Positions 4,752 to 19,193 of a stretch of DNA of 20,139 nucleotides are shown here, one piece after another. The notes under the pieces are model-generated. The model did no database searches and was not told the origin of the DNA. It was given only the letters and a program-made list of their open reading frames with translations. The position numbers were made by a program, and so were the translations under genes. Source of the stretch: a virus (taxonomy: Duplodnaviria > Heunggongvirae > Uroviricota > Caudoviricetes); the IMG/VR virus record IMGVR_UViG_2728369187_000007, positions 1 through 20,139 of that record; one strand, written 5' to 3'. Within the stretch, counting starts at the first letter, position 1. Every line of letters starts with the position of its first letter.

Positions 4752-4809
4752 AAAAATGGCGGCAGAGCAGTCACGGAGTAAAACTGATACCGCCAAACGT
4801 CACCAGAAA
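4752..4809 (-). ncRNA. dicF: DicF small regulatory RNA (ftsZ-targeting sRNA of Qin-type prophages)
   Basis: Reverse complement reads UUUCUGGUGACGUUUGGCGGUAUCAGUUUUACUCCGUGACUGCUCUGCCGCCAUUUUU, near-identical to the DicF sequence as I recall it. Ends in a GC stem plus U-run; located between the leader and dicB. Confidence 0.75.
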
Positions 4810-8158: not shown

Positions 8159-8581
8159 GTGGCAAAAGTTTTTACACAGGAAGAGCGGGAAAAAATTAAA
8201 GAGCAGGTGGTCGAACTTGTGCGCCAGAGCGGTCGCGAGACATTACGACAGTTGGAAGCTAAAACAGGTGCGACAAGATATCTGATGAGCATTCTTGCCA
8301 GAGAGCTGGTTGCCAGTGGTTATGTATACAACTCCGGCTACGGGTTATTCCCGTCTGAACAGGCACGAAAGGACTGGCAAAATGCCCGCAAAAAACTCTC
8401 TAGGGCGAAGGTGAAGAAACCCGCTGTGGTTGATCCGGACCTTATCTGGTCACTACCTGATGGAGAAATACGTCGCTACGACAGTCGTCTAAACATAATC
8501 TGTCGCGAGTGCCGGAAGAGCGAAGTTATGCAGCGCATATTGTCGTTTTATCAGGGAAATGTTCGGTATCTATTTAAGTGA
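8159..8581 (+). CDS. Hypothetical protein (140 aa), replication-module associated
   Basis: GTG start with a strong RBS (AAGGAGGA, 8147-8154). Normal GC. No motif recognised; it does not look like a lambda P or DnaC-type helicase loader. Confidence 0.6.
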   Translation: MAKVFTQEEREKIKEQVVELVRQSGRETLRQLEAKTGATRYLMSILARELVASGYVYNSGYGLFPSEQARKDWQNARKKLSRAKVKKPAVVDPDLIWSLPDGEIRRYDSRLNIICRECRKSEVMQRILSFYQGNVRYLFK

Positions 8582-10384: not shown

Positions 10385-10656
10385 CTTACATCCATCTCCA
10401 TTAAGAAATCTTGCTATTGTTCTTATGGATCGTCTTTCTGACTGATTTCATATTGGCGAGGTAAAGGTAGTTAAGTAGAATGGCTGCGGGTGCTTGAGGC
10501 TATCTGCCTCGGGCATGAACACCAAAGGCAGATAGAGAAAAGCCCCAGTTAACATTACGCGTCCTGCAAGACGCTTAACATTAATCTGAGGCTCAATCTA
10601 TGAACGGCAAATCTAGGTTAGCCTCTTACGTGCCGAAAGGCAAGGAGAAGCAGGCT

Positions 10657-10812
10657 ATGAAGCAGCAAAAGGCGATGTTAATCGCCCTGATCGTCATCTG
10701 TTTAACCGTCATAGTGACGGCACTGGTAACGAGGAAAGACCTCTGCGAGGTACGAATCCGAACCGGCCAGACGGAGGTCGCTGTCTTCACAGCTTACGAA
10801 CCTGAGGAGTAA
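10657..10812 (+). CDS. hokD: Hok/Gef-family membrane toxin (HokD/RelF-like)
   Basis: 51-aa product MKQQKAMLIALIVICLTVIVTALVTRKDLCEVRIRTGQTEVAVFTAYEPEE with the single TM helix and conserved Cys of Hok toxins. RBS AAGGAGAAG upstream of the ATG at 10657. Confidence 0.85.
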   Translation: MKQQKAMLIALIVICLTVIVTALVTRKDLCEVRIRTGQTEVAVFTAYEPEE

Positions 10813-13346: not shown

Positions 13347-14032
13347 ATAACCAGTATTTACAGTTTGTGCGTGAGCAGCTCATTATCGCTACCGCTGATT
13401 TGAGTGGGGCAACAAAAGGTCAGCTTGAAGCCTGGCAGGAGAATGCCATGTTTGATACAGGGCGTTACAGGCGTAAAAAAATCCGGTACCGCGATGAAGT
13501 GACTGGAAGAATGATAACGCGGGATAGTCCACCGATACCGGGAAAACAATCACTGGCGAAAGGCTCATCAATTGCTCTGGTAAGTCAGGTTGAGTTTTCG
13601 ACATCATCATGGCGACGGGCAGTTCTGTCTCTTGAAGAACATCATAAAGCCTGGTTGTTGTGGTGTTACAGCGGGATTATTTGTTGGGAATATCAGATCG
13701 CGATAACACAGTGGGCGTGGAATGAATTTAATACTCAATCCGGTACCAGAAAAATTGCAGGGAAAACGCAGGAACGCCTGAAAAAATTAATCTGGCTGGC
13801 GGCGCAGGCAGTAAAAGCAGAACTTTTTGGTGGGGAAGGTTATGAATACCAGGAGCTGGCATTACTGGCGGGAGTGACAACTAAAAACTGGTCCAAAACA
13901 TTTACTCGTCACTGGGTTGCAATGAAACACATTTTTCACCGACTTGATAGTGAGGCTTTATTGTTTGTAATGAGAACACGTTCAAAACAAAAGGCGGCAT
14001 TTTCAAAGCAAAGTGTTGCAAAAGTAGATTGA
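13343..14032 (+). CDS. Late-gene antiterminator Q-like protein (putative)
   Basis: 229 aa; ATG overlaps the rusA stop (ATGA). Last gene before the promoter/terminator/lysis region. Assignment is by position, not by a recognised motif. Confidence 0.5.
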   Translation: MNNQYLQFVREQLIIATADLSGATKGQLEAWQENAMFDTGRYRRKKIRYRDEVTGRMITRDSPPIPGKQSLAKGSSIALVSQVEFSTSSWRRAVLSLEEHHKAWLLWCYSGIICWEYQIAITQWAWNEFNTQSGTRKIAGKTQERLKKLIWLAAQAVKAELFGGEGYEYQELALLAGVTTKNWSKTFTRHWVAMKHIFHRLDSEALLFVMRTRSKQKAAFSKQSVAKVD

Positions 14033-14044
14033 AAGGCATATATT
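14016..14044 (+). promoter_or_regulatory. Candidate late promoter (pR'-like) overlapping the 3' end of the Q-like gene
   Basis: -35 TTGCAA (14016-14021), 17-bp spacer, -10 TATATT (14039-14044), about 50 nt upstream of a strong terminator. Confidence 0.35.
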
Positions 14045-14095
14045 TCATGCAAATCTGATATTTTGCCGATTTTGTACGTGATGGCAAAAGCAAAC

Positions 14096-14121
14096 AAAAC
14101 CCGCCCACAAGCGGGTTTTTT
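14096..14121 (+). terminator. Rho-independent terminator (tR'-like)
   Basis: AAAACCCGC-CCACAA-GCGGGTTTT stem-loop followed by a T-run. Confidence 0.65.
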
Positions 14122-14226
14122 GTGCCACTTATCTCGGATAGACATGGTGAATGCGCTGGTGGAGGAGATAAGGGTGATTTTTGAATGCTTGCAACATTGA
14201 TTTCGTAACGTTATTATCCTGCGCCC

Positions 14227-14302
14227 GGCCCTTTAGCTCAGTGGTGAGAGCGAGCGACTCATAATCGCCAGGTCGCTGGTTCAAATCCAGCAAGGGCCAC
14301 CA
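14227..14302 (+). tRNA. tRNA with anticodon CAT (elongator Met or Ile2-type)
   Basis: 76 nt. 7-bp acceptor stem GGCCCTT/AAGGGCC, D-arm GCTC...GAGC, anticodon loop CTCATAA, T-arm GCTGG-TTCAAAT-CCAGC, encoded CCA. G1-C72 pair argues against an initiator. Confidence 0.85.
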
Positions 14303-14303
14303 G

Positions 14304-14380
14304 CCGCCACTAGCTCATCAGGAAAGAGCGTCAACCCTTTAAGTTGAGTGTGCGAGGTTCGAGTCCCCGGTGGCGGTCCA
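14304..14380 (+). tRNA. tRNA-like gene, anticodon TTT (Lys) as read, atypical anticodon loop
   Basis: 77 nt. Perfect 7-bp acceptor stem, D-arm GCTC...GAGC, anticodon stem TCAAC/GTTGA with loop CCTTTAA (C at position 33), T-loop TTCGAGT with one A-C mismatch in the T-stem, encoded CCA. Confidence 0.6.
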
Positions 14381-14382
14381 GT

Positions 14383-14458
<76 letters not shown>

Positions 14459-14461
14459 TAT

Positions 14462-14536
<75 letters not shown>

Positions 14537-14828: not shown

Positions 14829-15044
14829 ATGAAATCCATGGACAAAATTTCAACGGGCATTGCCTACGGCACCTCCGCAGGCAGTGCTGGCTACTGGTTT
14901 TTACAGTGGCTTGATCAGGTCAGTCCGTCACAGTGGGCTGCGATTGGTGTACTGGGGAGTCTGGTTCTGGGCTTCCTGACTTATCTGACAAATCTGTACT
15001 TCAAAATCAGAGAAGACAAGCGTAAGGCTGCACGGGGAGAGTAA
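14829..15044 (+). CDS. Class II pinholin (phage 21 S-like) with dual-start motif
   Basis: 71 aa, [24 protein letters not shown]..., two TM segments. Met1 and Met4 give the S21-type 71/68 antiholin/holin pair. Confidence 0.85.
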
Positions 15045-15048
15045 TTCA

Positions 15049-15363
15049 ATGACTCAAAACTATGAACTGATTGTGAAAGGGATCCGCAATTTTGAGAATA
15101 AAGTTACGGTAACTTTAGCGTTACGGGACAAAAAACGCTTTGACGGTGAAATTTTTGGCTTGGACATCTCGCTGGACCGTGTTGAAGGTGCCGCGCTGGA
15201 GTTTTATGAGGCAGCAGCCAGAAGGAGCATCAGACAGGTCTTCCTGGATGTTGCTGCCGGGCTATGTGAAGGGGACGAGCTGTTGCCAGAAACGCGCCCC
15301 TGTTCAGAGGCGCGGTATACCATAAAAATTAACAGTTCTGATAACTCGATTACAGGTTGTTAG
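15049..15363 (+). CDS. Hypothetical protein between holin and endolysin (YdfR-like by position and length)
   Basis: 104-aa ORF starting 5 nt after the holin stop. In the K-12 Qin prophage a 103-aa gene (ydfR) sits in the same place, as I recall. No motif recognised. Confidence 0.6.
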   Translation: MTQNYELIVKGIRNFENKVTVTLALRDKKRFDGEIFGLDISLDRVEGAALEFYEAAARRSIRQVFLDVAAGLCEGDELLPETRPCSEARYTIKINSSDNSITGC

Positions 15364-15418
15364 CTTTTTGCAGTTGGCTTTCCAGTATCTTTCATTGGTA
15401 GCATCCTGATAAATATCC

Positions 15419-15952
15419 ATGAGCGCAAAAATCAAATACGGCCTGTCAGCTGCTGTTCTGGCGCTGATTGCTGCAGGCGCGTCTGCTCCTCAAATACTTG
15501 ACCAGTTTCTGGATGAAAAAGAGGGTAACCACACTACGGCATACCGCGATGGTTCCGGCATATGGACCATCTGCCGCGGTGCAACGATGGTGGATGGTAA
15601 GCCAGTCGTACCAGGAATGAAACTGTCGAAGGAAAAATGCGCTCAGGTTAATGCCATTGAGCGTGATAAGGCGCTGGCATGGGTGGAGCGCAATATAAAA
15701 GTTCCACTGACCGAGCCACAGAAAGCCGGTATCGCATCATTCTGTCCCTATAACATTGGCCCCGGTAAGTGTTTCCCGTCGACGTTTTATAAGCGGCTGA
15801 ATGCCGGTGATCGTAAGGGCGCATGCGAGGCGATTCGCTGGTGGATAAAAGATGGTGGGCGCGATTGCCGCATACGTTCAAATAACTGCTATGGACAGGT
15901 TATTCGTCGTGACCAGGAAAGCGCATTAGCCTGTTGGGGGATAGATCAGTGA
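15419..15952 (+). CDS. SAR endolysin (phage lysozyme with N-terminal signal-anchor-release domain)
   Basis: 177 aa. Weakly hydrophobic N-terminus ([17 protein letters not shown]) followed by the lysozyme catalytic triad spacing E-x8-D-x5-T ([18 protein letters not shown]). Confidence 0.85.
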
Positions 15953-16413
15953 GCAGAGTCGCCGCGATTATTTATGCTCTGGTTATTTGCATCATCGTCT
16001 GCCTGTTGTGGGCGGTCAATCATTACCGTGATAACGCCATCGCCTACAAAGAACAGCGTGATAAAAAAGTCAGTGAGCTGAAGCAGGCGATCGCCACCAT
16101 CGCTGACATGCAGCAGCGTCAGCGTGATGTTGCTGCGCTCGATGCAAAGTACTCGAGAGAATTAGCCAATGCGAAAGCTGAAAATGAAACTCTGCGCGCT
16201 GATGTTGCCGCTGGTCGTCGTCGGTTGCACATCAAAGCAGTCTGTCAGTCAGTGCGTGAAGCCACCACCGCCTCCGGCGTGGATAATGCAACCAGCCCCC
16301 GACTGGCAGACACCGCTGAACGGGATTATTTCACCCTCAGAGAGCGGCTGATGACGATGCAGATGCAACTGGAAGGGGCACAGGAGTATATCCGCACTCA
16401 GTGCATTAAGTAG
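15949..16413 (+). CDS. rz: Rz i-spanin
   Basis: GTG start overlapping the endolysin stop (GTGA). N-terminal TM helix then coiled coil; near-identical in pattern to lambda Rz (MSRVTAII...). The ORF-track TTG start at 15934 is rejected. Confidence 0.85.
16169..16351 (+). CDS. rz1: Rz1 o-spanin lipoprotein, embedded in the +1 frame of Rz
   Basis: 60 aa, lipobox LVVVGC, proline-rich (PPPPPAW); matches lambda Rz1. Lies entirely within Rz. Confidence 0.8.
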
Positions 16414-16455: not shown

Positions 16456-16806
16456 ATGCCATCACGAATCCCACGCGCCTGCCGTAAGCGTGGATGTGCA
16501 GGTACAACCACAGACAGTTCTGGTTACTGCGATAAACATCGTGGCGAAGGATGGGTACAGCATCAACGCGGACTGAGCCGCCACCAGCGTGGCTATGGCT
16601 CGAAATGGGATGCCATACGTGCGCGCATACTGAAGCGTGATAATCATCTGTGTCAGAACTGCCTGCGCAATGGGAGAGCCGTTGAAGCCAGAACTGTGGA
16701 CCACATCATTCCGAAAGCTCATGGTGGCACGGATGCAGACAGTAACCTGCAGAGTCTGTGCTGGCCCTGTCATAAAGCAAAAACAGCGCGCGAACGCATC
16801 AATTGA
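16456..16806 (+). CDS. HNH endonuclease (terminase-associated)
   Basis: 116 aa with Cys pairs (CxxC...CxxC) and HNH catalytic region (VDHIIPKAHGGTDADSNLQSLCWPCH). GAGGT RBS. Immediately upstream of the terminase genes. Confidence 0.85.
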   Translation: MPSRIPRACRKRGCAGTTTDSSGYCDKHRGEGWVQHQRGLSRHQRGYGSKWDAIRARILKRDNHLCQNCLRNGRAVEARTVDHIIPKAHGGTDADSNLQSLCWPCHKAKTARERIN

Positions 16807-16953: not shown

Positions 16954-17436
16954 ATGTCAGGACCTCCGAAAACCCCGCCACACCTGCATTTGATTCGAGG
17001 CAACCCCTCAAAGCGCCCCGTTAAAGACCACAAAAAAACCGCTAAAAAGGATGAAAAAGGTCTTCCTAAAATTCCGCAGCATTTAGGGGCTCAGGGGAAG
17101 TACTGGTTCAGGCGAATGGCGGAAGAGCTGAATGCGGAAGGGATCATTTCTCAGCTTGATGCGCGTGCGCTCGAGTTGCTGGTGGAAGCCTACACCGAAT
17201 ATCGGCATCACTGCGAAACACTCGATGTTGAGGGGTATACCTACCGCACGGAAACGCAGAGCGGTGATGTACTGATTAAGGCGCACCCCGCGGCGGCAAT
17301 GAAAGCGGATGCCTGGAAGCGGATCCGGGCAATGCTTGCAGAGTTTGGTATGTCACCGGCAAGCCGGGCTAAAGTAAATATCGCCGGACCGGATGATGTT
17401 GATCCGCTGGCGGAGCTTTTAAAAGCGAGAGACTGA
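16954..17436 (+). CDS. Terminase small subunit
   Basis: 160-aa protein directly upstream of the large terminase, with overlapping stop/start (ATGA). Basic N-terminus. Confidence 0.75.
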   Translation: MSGPPKTPPHLHLIRGNPSKRPVKDHKKTAKKDEKGLPKIPQHLGAQGKYWFRRMAEELNAEGIISQLDARALELLVEAYTEYRHHCETLDVEGYTYRTETQSGDVLIKAHPAAAMKADAWKRIRAMLAEFGMSPASRAKVNIAGPDDVDPLAELLKARD

Positions 17437-19193
17437 TGGCAAAAGTGGCTGACGGGATCCGCTACGCCGAACGTGTTGTTGCAGGAGAAATTGTTGCTGG
17501 CGAATTTGTCCGCCTGGCCTGCCAGCGTTTTCTTGATGATCTGAAGTACGGCGAAGAGCGGGGGATTTATTTCAGTGAACCCCGTGCGCAGCACATCCTG
17601 AATTTCTACAAATTTGTGCCTCATGTAAAAGGGGCGCTGGCAGGCCAGCCCATTGAGTTGATGGACTGGCATGTATTTATCCTCATTAATATTTTTGGTT
17701 TTGTCATTCCGCTGGTCAATGAAGAGACCGGGGAAGTTGTCATGCGCAGCGATGGCAGCGGACGTCCGGTGATGGTGCGCCGGTTCCGGACGGCGTACAA
17801 CGAAGTCGCCCGTAAAAACGCAAAATCAACTCTGTCATCGGGTATCGGCCTGTATATGACGGGGGCAGATGGTGAAGGCGGAGCTGAGGTGTATTCAGCC
17901 GCAACCACGCGTGACCAGGCCAGAATCGTGTTTGAAGACGCCAAAAATATGGTCAGAAAAGCCAGGTCGACACTCGGGCGGTTGTTTGATTTCAACAAGC
18001 TGGCGATTTACCAGGAGCAGAGCGCATCAAAATTTGAACCGCTTTCTTCGGATGCAAACAACCTGGATGGTCTGAACATCCACTGCGCCATTATTGATGA
18101 GCTGCATGCACATAAAACCCGTGACGTGTGGGACGTTCTGGAAACGGCAACCGGTGCCCGTCTGCAGTCCCTTTTATTTGGTATCACCACGGCAGGGTTT
18201 AACAAGGAAGGGATTTGTTACGAGCAGCGTGATTACGCCATCAAGGTATTGCGTGGCTATAACAGCGACGTGGAGGGCGCGGTAAAAGACGACTCCTACT
18301 TTGCGATTATTTACACCCTCGATGAGGGAGATGATCCGTTTGATGAAACGGTCTGGCAGAAAGCGAATCCCGGCCTGGGCATCTGTAAACGCTGGGATGA
18401 TCTGCGTCGCCTGGCGAAAAAAGCGAAAGAACAGGTCTCTGCGCGGGTGAATTTTTTTACCAAACACATGAATGTGTGGGTAACAGCAGAGTCTGCCTGG
18501 ATGGACATGATTAAGTGGGAGAAGTGCGAATACATTGCCCCACGACATGAGCTGAAAACGTATCCCATGTGGGTCGGCGTTGACCTTGCTCATAAGATTG
18601 ATATCTGTGCGGCGGCAAAACTCTGGCGAACGGATAACGGGCATGTTCATGCCGATTTTAAATTCTGGCTTCCGGAAGGACGACTGGAACGATGCTCGCG
18701 GCAGCAGGCAGAACTTTACCGGAAGTGGGCGGAGATGGATAAGCTGATTCTGACGGATGGTGATGTTATCGATCATGCTCAGATAAAAAGTGACTTACTG
18801 GAATGGATTGGTGGTGAAAACCTCAGGGAACTGGGATTTGACCCGTGGAGCGCGATGCAGTTCAGCCTGGCACTGGCTGAAGAAGGGATACCGCTAGTGG
18901 AGGTTCCGCAGACGGTTCGCAATCTGTCAGAGGCCATGAAGGAAACGGAATCACTGGTCTATGCCGGGCGTTTCCATCACAGCAATCATCCGGTCATGAA
19001 CTGGATGATGTCTAACGTTACGGTAAAACCGGACAAAAACGACAATATCTTCCCGAATAAATCCACGCTGGAAGCCAAAATCGACGGCCCTGTTGCGATG
19101 TTTACAGCAATGAGCCGGATGCTGGTCAATGGTGGTGAACCGGAGCTGGATCTGTCTGAACATCTGGTCAGCGTGGGCATCCGCTCGCTTTAA
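17436..19193 (+). CDS. Terminase large subunit
   Basis: 585-aa protein; ATPase region followed by nuclease region; the standard position after the small terminase. Confidence 0.85.

Follow-up and report, generated by a model that had tools for sequence, protein, structure and literature searches.

A YdfR-family (DUF1327) gene behind the P21-type holin of an Escherichia lambdoid prophage: an optional late-operon passenger whose core may contact RNase E

The window analysed here is a stretch of 20,139 nucleotides (nt) from a virus of the Caudoviricetes (positions 1 to 20,139 of the IMG/VR record IMGVR_UViG_2728369187_000007), and its lysis cassette contains an ATG-initiated open reading frame (ORF), 15049..15363 (+), which encodes a protein of 104 amino acids (aa) and lies between the gene of a P21-type class II holin and that of an endolysin of the signal-arrest-release (SAR) type. 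A preliminary description of this DNA had placed the ORF there from the letters alone, and the observation was confirmed in every particular, including a start 5 nt after the holin stop (the TAA ends at 15044, the 4-nt spacer ttca occupies 15045-15048, and the ATG begins at the fifth base, 15049) and an end exactly 55 nt before the endolysin, the ORF's stop codon TAG ending at 15363 and the endolysin ATG standing at 15419. The holin, labelled 'class II holin family protein' in RefSeq, begins with MKSMDK, the dual-start motif (MKSM) of the P21 type, and reaches a maximum Kyte-Doolittle hydropathy over 19 residues (KD19) of 1.72. The endolysin is related to phage 21 R (structures 3HDE/3HDF, E=2e-16) and to RrrD (4ZPU), shows an E-x8-D-x5-T motif, and has a short, basic N-terminus (MSAKIK...) as well as a weakly hydrophobic, Gly/Ala-rich N-terminal segment (KD19 1.78 at residue 9), which is consistent with a SAR domain. 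The last holin codons contain a Shine-Dalgarno (SD) sequence, and the junction made up of this SD, the TAA and four further nucleotides serves whichever gene comes after the holin. In the form GGAGAG-TAA-N4-ATG it is kept in all 11 of the 11 Escherichia/Shigella loci examined (K-12, BP-4795, Perceval and others), with the DUF1327 gene in the same slot, which bears out the conserved position that had been proposed for the ORF. A minus-strand ORF of 43 aa at 15304-15435 matched no family and was dismissed as chance, and no Rfam family of RNAs overlaps 15049-15363. The coordinates of these and other features are collected in Table 1.

Table 1. Features of the window and of compared loci; positions refer to the window unless a locus handle is given
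Feature	Position	Strand	Basis
Candidate late promoter TTGCAA-N17-TATATT, overlapping the end of the Q gene	14016-14044	+	promoter-like site scan
Intrinsic terminator hairpin AAAACCCGC-CCACA-AGCGGGTTTTTTG with T6 run, ~50-80 nt past the promoter	14096-14125	+	read directly
P21-type class II holin (pinholin type), 71 aa	14829..15044	+	PF04971 E=1.4e-35; phrog_9876, phrog_20 'holin'
Shine-Dalgarno GGGGAGAG (15034-15041) within the last holin codons, then TAA and 4-nt spacer	15034..15048	+	conserved junction
DUF1327/YdfR core, residues 1-72	15049..15264	+	PF07041 match, AlphaFold2 model, family alignment
'Type A' C-terminal tail (...LLPETRPCSEARYTIKINSSDNSITGC), residues 73-104 and TAG	15265..15363	+	low confidence in the model
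Deletion scar: 3' end (last ~13 codons and stop, '...LPMKDTGKPTAKS' then stop) of a phrog_21218 gene	15360..15403	-	Perceval alignment, minus-strand translation
Endolysin leader TCCTGATAAATATCC, A/T-rich, without Shine-Dalgarno	15404..15418	+	conserved upstream of R in DUF1327-bearing cassettes
SAR-type endolysin (phage lysozyme), 177 aa	15419..15952	+	PF00959 E=1.7e-24
Rz i-spanin	15934..16413	+	PF03245 E=2.4e-49; 15934 is the longest-ORF start, the RefSeq homologue ('lysis protein') starts at the equivalent of 15949
Embedded Rz1 o-spanin	16169-16351	+	PF06085 E=6.4e-20
HNH endonuclease	16456-16806		
P27-family small terminase	16954-17436		
Large terminase	17436-19193		
Convergent gap gene, L003	4312-4551	-	PHROG match
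Convergent gap gene, L005	3311-3589	-	PHROG match
Convergent gap gene, L006	3500-3766	-	PHROG match
Convergent gap gene, L026	2311-2583	-	PHROG match

The ORF protein belongs to a family that has already been described. Its match to DUF1327 of Pfam (PF07041) scores 128.9 bits, where the cut-off is 25, and covers profile positions 1-90 of 93 (E=8.3e-38). The protein also matches phrog_2735 over its full length (E=2.1e-54), and it is identical to RefSeq WP_000193292.1 ('DUF1327 domain-containing protein'), for which the NCBI family name is 'YdfR family protein'; a search of NCBIfam with the ORF protein matched no model. Phage Perceval encodes a 99% identical protein, and over 1,801 bases of the cassette the closest E. 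coli match has a single difference from the window. Since the exact protein already stands in RefSeq, the gene is already known, the window itself is no new discovery, and a specialist would not be surprised by it. Over the first 76 codons, the pairwise ratio of nonsynonymous to synonymous divergence (dN/dS) against other alleles ranges from 0.14 to 0.55, with dS up to ~1.8, so that by this comparison the core is clearly under purifying selection. Together with the DUF1327 match and the identical RefSeq protein, these values indicate a real gene, which clearly goes beyond a chance reading frame.

The gene order in the Qin prophage of E. coli K-12 MG1655 is essQ-ydfR-rrrQ, with ydfR (b1555, P76160) starting 4 nt past the holin stop, and the statement in the preliminary description that ydfR fills the same slot was therefore right, although the K-12 protein has 103 aa and the window protein 104. 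The two proteins are 64% identical overall and 80.6% identical over residues 1-72, and their C-terminal tails are unrelated. DNA matches to DUF1327 were found in 4,347 of 5,426 complete E. coli genomes (~80%), at 8,559 places and with up to nine per genome. Many Stx1 and Stx2c phages are among the carriers. When one genome per species was scanned (185,579 species), eight loci came up, all of them from Escherichia/Shigella except two contigs of metagenome-assembled genomes (MAGs), one labelled Veillonella parvula (L008) and the other Bacillota bacterium (L010), whose lysis-cassette DNA encodes K-12-type YdfR tails. The tblastn statistics of L008 equal those of the E. coli and E. ruysiae loci and the holin-YdfR junction of L010 is of the Escherichia type, and both contigs are probably products of binning contamination, not signs of a wider host range. 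A profile search of 1.84 billion representative proteins gave only 81 matches, none of which linked the family to an annotated one, and a few Salmonella entries were present among the matches of the protein search.

Comparison within the family divides the protein into a conserved core and a variable tail. In an alignment of 36 curated relatives, which was also the input for an AlphaFold2 model, conservation extends from residue 1 to about residue 76, and after it come at least five alternative tails that give proteins of 103, 104, 114/116, 161 and 176 aa. At the DNA level, the identity between the window and other alleles stops sharply at nt 252 of the ORF, and at nt 206 against K-12. The modelled core consists of three beta-strands (residues 5-14, 18-27 and 34-43) and a long amphipathic helix (50-76), with a predicted local distance difference test score (pLDDT) of ~72-88, and the tail falls below 50 at residues 75-96 and 99-104. 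Y53-E54, at the N-terminus of the helix, are the sole residues invariant throughout the family, the members of the alignment ranging down to 22-38% identity. Codon 37 of the window allele (15157-15159) encodes Gly (EIFGLD). Asp occurs there in 128 of the 136 motif matches among the retrieved relatives and Gly in three, which makes the change an uncommon one at a site, in the loop or strand preceding beta-3, that hardly varies.

A metagenomic protein of 176 aa (P0185) has two DUF1327 cores in tandem, which supports the core as an autonomous folding and functional unit, possibly dimeric. This duplication, the standalone relatives of 72-76 aa described below, the at least five tails and the disorder of the tail in the model together indicate, by comparison, that the functional unit is a soluble 72-residue beta-beta-beta-alpha module and the tail an appendage. 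The ORF protein is acidic (pI 5.0) and has a maximum KD19 of 0.75 with no hydrophobic segment or signal sequence, and the earlier impression of a soluble-looking protein is borne out. Structure prediction followed by Foldseek, which had been recommended for this ORF, yielded the fold given above and no match in BFVD at E<=0.001; a sequence search of PDB chains with the ORF protein found none even at E<=10, and no second domain turned up when the long variants (176-287 aa) were searched against Pfam.

The DUF1327 gene is common in this slot and at the same time dispensable there. Holin and endolysin genes (S and R) had been taken to be normally adjacent in lysis cassettes, which holds for lambda, 933W and DLP12-type cassettes, but an intervening gene is common where the holin is of the P21 type, as complete E. 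coli genomes contain 8,559 DUF1327 places against 16,888 holin places. Among 438 phage records with a P21-type holin, DUF1327 is present in only 101 (77% without). In 933W, the ATG of the endolysin gene R takes the same position behind the holin (GGGGAGAG-TAA-N4-ATG), and in the DLP12-type cassettes of mEp332 and Lambda_ev203, S abuts R; because S runs directly to R in these three phages, cassettes with this holin do exist without DUF1327. By these counts and alignments, the gene is an optional passenger directly behind the P21-type holin in Escherichia lambdoid prophages.

More distant relatives occur in quite different surroundings. On the metagenome contigs L012-L022, core-only DUF1327 genes of 72-76 aa are found outside the holin-endolysin interval, namely after the tape measure gene, after a gene like that of gpI, between gpM-like and gpL-like genes or gpL-like and gpK-like ones, and after an Rz spanin gene, and others lie upstream of the unrelated holins Phage_holin_8 and Phage_holin_3_7. 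Every core-only gene examined has a convergent gene 20-50 nt downstream, which belongs to phrog_25324 (~99 aa) or phrog_18578 (~182 aa), except for one 70-aa ORF outside both families. The core-only gene and its convergent neighbour form a conserved tail-to-tail two-gene module. When two of the distant members were used as queries against phage genomes, the only matches were to the E. coli family, at 28-37% identity, with no close relatives there. The contexts of the distant relatives argue against an intrinsic tie of the family to lysis, and they suggest that DUF1327 travels as a small accessory unit in late operons, usually with a variable companion on the opposite strand.

Convergent genes are also present in Escherichia cassettes. 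The gap between DUF1327 and R measures 340-370 nt in Perceval (L003), E. ruysiae (L005) and E. coli (L006), and in each of them it holds a minus-strand gene from one of three unrelated PHROG families, phrog_21218, phrog_2411 and phrog_2572 (E 1e-53 to 1e-59), which were counted in complete E. coli genomes at ~114, ~1,234 and ~335 places respectively, or ~1,683 together. One convergent gap gene carries a RefSeq annotation, and Pfam gave nothing significant for the convergent partners. These genes run into the 3' end of DUF1327, and the choice of C-terminal tail in its product appears to be dictated by them. The Perceval gene encodes 79 aa (phrog_21218, E=1.9e-57), and the window spacer consists of the first 40 nt of the Perceval gap joined directly to the 15-nt R leader, with ~315 bp missing. 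Because the Perceval alignment and the minus-strand reading both give the C-terminus of phrog_21218, the 55-nt spacer is the scar of a deleted convergent cargo gene that is intact in Perceval. An identical scar is present in E. albertii (L004) and in E. coli OHT76-1 (L027). The slot between holin and endolysin is on this evidence a cargo hotspot.

The leader of the endolysin gene is shared by the cassettes that carry DUF1327. It reads ...(C)CTGATAAATATC(C/T)ATG in the window, BP-4795, Perceval, L004, L005 and L010, and R is preceded by ...CTGATAAATATCC-ATG or ...CCTGATAAATATCC-ATG, without an SD, in the window and in L002, L003, L005 and L010. In K-12, the bases homologous to this leader are read as the last ydfR codons, and ydfR and rrrQ overlap by 4 nt (ATGA). 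An inserted DUF1327 gene takes the holin-embedded SD, and the endolysin is thereby left behind an SD-less leader; as the 933W endolysin has the strong GGAGAG instead, the endolysin:holin ratio may differ between the two kinds of cassette.

The preliminary description had stated that nothing in the sequence reveals a function, which is essentially true of the sequence and fold searches; an experimental lead exists, however, for the K-12 homologue. In a two-hybrid screen with RNase G as bait, codons 1-72 of K-12 ydfR were recovered as three identical clones (Göpel et al. 2026, PMC13232886). The 1-72 fragment gave a stronger two-hybrid signal with RNase E constructs, full-length YdfR was positive with Rne1-597, and FLAG-Rne1-598 co-eluted with Strep-YdfR and not with the PtsN control (PMC13232886). 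DNase-resistant nucleic acid co-purified with YdfR, overproduction of YdfR altered few transcripts and did not impair growth, and ydfR was essentially silent in uninduced K-12 (PMC13232886). The fragment reported to bind RNase E is the same stretch as the autonomous core delimited by the family comparison, and over this core the differences between the window protein and K-12 YdfR are mostly conservative.

The position of the ORF suggests when such a protein would be made. The Q antiterminator of the window was identified by PF06323 (E=3.4e-89), and the promoter-like site at the end of its gene and the hairpin that follows suggest a pR'/tR'-type layout at 14016..14125, which would put the lysis genes under Q antitermination (the hairpin was read on the plus strand, and the scan reported the same hairpin on the minus strand only). 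The ORF would accordingly be transcribed as the second protein gene of a Q-dependent late operon and translated from the SD embedded in the last holin codons, so that a cytoplasmic product could be expected at roughly holin-like levels, late in lytic growth. Its core would bind RNase E in the catalytic N-terminal half and, less strongly, RNase G, possibly with RNA also involved, and the binding would modulate RNA processing or decay during expression of the long late transcript, outside the holin-endolysin-spanin pathway of lysis. By analogy with K-12 YdfR, the window allele would be expected to bind RNase E, the binding would be direct, and it would have a consequence for RNA decay in infection. 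That the ORF protein is expressed late and modulates RNase E or RNA decay is the reading preferred here, tentatively and with less than even confidence. A more ambitious form of it is unlikely as a whole, namely that the DUF1327 core is a dedicated lambdoid modulator of the RNase E/RNase G catalytic domain, made together with the pinholin and stabilising or reprogramming RNA in the last minutes before lysis, and that the slot behind it is a recombination hotspot exchanging convergent, lysogen-expressed cargo genes (at least five unrelated families, one of them deleted here).

Several points weigh against a modulator of RNase E. The interaction is reported in one paper and for an overproduced, tagged protein (PMC13232886), RNA could bridge the two partners, and that paper contains no nuclease-treated pull-down with purified YdfR. 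Full-length YdfR was negative with full-length Rne and with Rne1-415/498 and positive only with Rne1-597 (PMC13232886). The few transcripts changed and the unaffected growth upon overproduction disfavour a strong global effect on RNase E. In addition, so acidic a protein would be unusual as a direct RNA binder, and binding could differ in the window allele, which has G37 where ~94% of the relatives have Asp. A role in RNA decay also leaves the invariable linkage to the holin in Escherichia unexplained.

The convergent neighbours point to another possibility, which is considered rather improbable: that DUF1327 and the convergent gene together make up a mobile cargo or conflict module, DUF1327 acting late as a neutraliser or co-factor of an exclusion or defence factor that the convergent gene expresses in the lysogen, with the window copy left as an orphan. 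The opposite-strand gene found 20-50 nt from every distant standalone DUF1327 gene examined would fit such a module, as would the three gene families in Escherichia S-R slots and the phrog_21218 3' scar in the window, and a narrow taxonomic range with heavy mosaicism is typical of conflict genes. Five unrelated partner families for one conserved core, however, disfavour a specific protein-protein pairing, and the Escherichia partners occupy far fewer places in E. coli than DUF1327 does (~1,683 against 8,559). Moreover, DUF1327 has stayed intact in K-12 and in the window lineage, where it has no partner, with its core still under purifying selection, and PADLOC-DB gave no match at E<=0.01 for the ORF protein, the long variants or two convergent partners.

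From the position of the ORF, the preliminary description had drawn a role in lysis timing or in the regulation of endolysin release, and this suggestion is not supported; the support for a lysis role is only positional, and it is regarded as highly doubtful that the protein tunes pinholin triggering or the SAR endolysin's release, for example by binding the basic cytoplasmic N-terminus of the endolysin or the cytoplasmic C-terminus of the holin as an anionic, soluble analogue of a releasin or antiholin. In favour of such a regulator, the gene is probably co-expressed with the lysis genes and keeps its place behind the holin in Escherichia, with the same 4-nt junction at 11 of 11 loci; the protein is also acidic, like the cytoplasmic domain of Mu gp25 (PMC9239132), and deletion of ydfR in K-12 gave a mutant that scored when strains were screened for envelope leakage (supplement of PMC3879167). 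The leakage score of this Keio mutant might, however, reflect a polar effect on the downstream lysozyme gene rrrQ, which is plausible because ydfR overlaps the rrrQ start by 4 nt. The gene is absent from 77% of the phage records with the same type of holin, including 933W and mEp332, its distant relatives sit in tail modules and not in S-R slots, and YdfR overproduction was harmless, without a growth defect (PMC13232886). The protein also has no membrane segment that could act as a transmembrane tether, which is defining for releasins and antiholins (PMC9239132), and no DUF2730 match was obtained in the Pfam search. A subtle influence on timing may nonetheless exist, including one in cis, since the inserted gene deprives the endolysin of the holin-embedded SD.

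Least probable is a mainly cis-acting insertion that captures the holin-embedded SD and resets the endolysin:holin ratio, its protein having little or no function and the gene being a selfish or neutral passenger: R of 933W uses GGAGAG-TAA-N4-ATG where in all DUF1327 cassettes this junction serves DUF1327 and the R leader lacks an SD, and the overproduction phenotype of YdfR is minimal (PMC13232886), but a core dN/dS well below 1 with dS up to ~1.8, the conservation of Y53-E54 and the beta-strand pattern down to ~25% identity, and core-only homologues maintained in non-lysis contexts argue for selection on the protein itself. The remaining probability falls to a host target different from RNase E.

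The surroundings of the cassette are those of a largely intact prophage late region. Four tRNA genes (CAT, Lys-TTT, Thr-TGT and Gly-TCC) lie at 14227-14536 between Q and the holin gene, within the late transcription unit; the first was called Met(CAT) by ARAGORN and is annotated as tRNA-Ile in RefSeq for the identical gene, and its CAT anticodon is probably lysidine-modified. Rfam searches also located a DicF small RNA at 4757-4808 (-) with 73 bits and the sok antitoxin RNA of a hok/sok module at 10488-10662 (+) with 110 bits. The early region of the prophage is Qin-like. Downstream of the lysis genes, the HNH endonuclease gene stands directly upstream of the terminase genes, an HK97-like arrangement in which HNH assists cos cleavage.

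The DUF1327 gene is among the most widespread uncharacterised genes of E. coli prophages, and the present comparison adds an optional cargo hotspot, a deletion scar, and an autonomous 72-aa core which also occurs in tail operons and corresponds to the published RNase E-binding fragment. For annotation, this means that a location between holin and endolysin does not by itself make a gene a lysis gene, that the slot is a cargo hotspot, and that the 55-nt 'intergenic' segment is a deletion scar. [quoted passage not shown] If, moreover, the pinholin-coupled modulator is real, temperate coliphages would have in it their first factor directed at RNase E, and it would come from the most widespread 'hypothetical' gene of E. 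coli lysis cassettes.

Among known systems, K-12 YdfR is the closest, belonging to the same family and sharing the holin-YdfR-endolysin slot, the 4-nt junction and 80.6% of residues 1-72. It differs in a tail that is unrelated from about residue 70 and in the usual D37 in place of G37, and its gene overlaps rrrQ by ATGA, whereas 55 nt of scar and leader stand between the two genes in the window. Unlike the cryptic Qin, the window has a late region with intact ORFs for the lysis cassette, the HNH endonuclease and both terminase subunits.

The proposed mechanism has its nearest precedent in T4 Srd, which, in the account given by PMC13232886 with reference to Qi et al. 2015, binds RNase E in its N-terminal half and stimulates the decay of host mRNA. 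It would be a counterpart in function only: both would be small cytoplasmic phage proteins contacting the catalytic half of RNase E, the functional class proposed for the DUF1327 core, but no relationship in sequence or fold was found, and an effect on decay is demonstrated for Srd, against few altered transcripts for YdfR. Srd also belongs to a virulent phage and to its early gene set, not to a lysis cassette. Dip (gp37) of phiKZ and gp0.7 of T7 are likewise phage modulators of the RNA degradosome and have no homology to DUF1327. Both act on the C-terminal scaffold of RNase E and not on its catalytic half. Binders of the catalytic domain would form a class of K-12 YdfR, T4 Srd and RapZ, in which binding is shown for K-12 YdfR and the window protein would be placed by homology.

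Accessory regulators of SAR-endolysin release or holin triggering are known from other lysis cassettes, namely Mu gp25, S21-71 and P1 LydB (PMC9239132). The Mu releasin gp25 (DUF2730) combines an N-terminal transmembrane tether with an anionic cytoplasmic domain (PMC9239132). Whereas gp25 and the antiholins are membrane-anchored, the ORF protein has no hydrophobic segment, and the function of an S21-type antiholin is already supplied by the dual start of the window's own holin. A holin or antiholin was ruled out by the maximum KD19 of 0.75, against 1.72 in the holin, and by the lack of a holin family match, and a Mu-type releasin by the missing hydrophobic segment and by DUF1327 being the sole Pfam match.

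Finally, the gene resembles lambda-type morons such as bor and lom in being optional, mosaic and inserted between essential late genes, and the convergent partner genes fit the moron pattern as well, like bor downstream of Rz in 933W and Perceval. As an autonomous moron it was rejected: no promoter- or terminator-like site was found on either strand of 14829-15419 (by consensus scans, which are weak evidence), and its SD is shared with the 3' end of the holin gene. The base composition of the ORF is no different from that of its neighbours. In contrast to a moron, the DUF1327 gene is co-oriented with the holin gene and translationally embedded behind it, with no predicted promoter or terminator of its own, and it therefore behaves as a part of the late operon.

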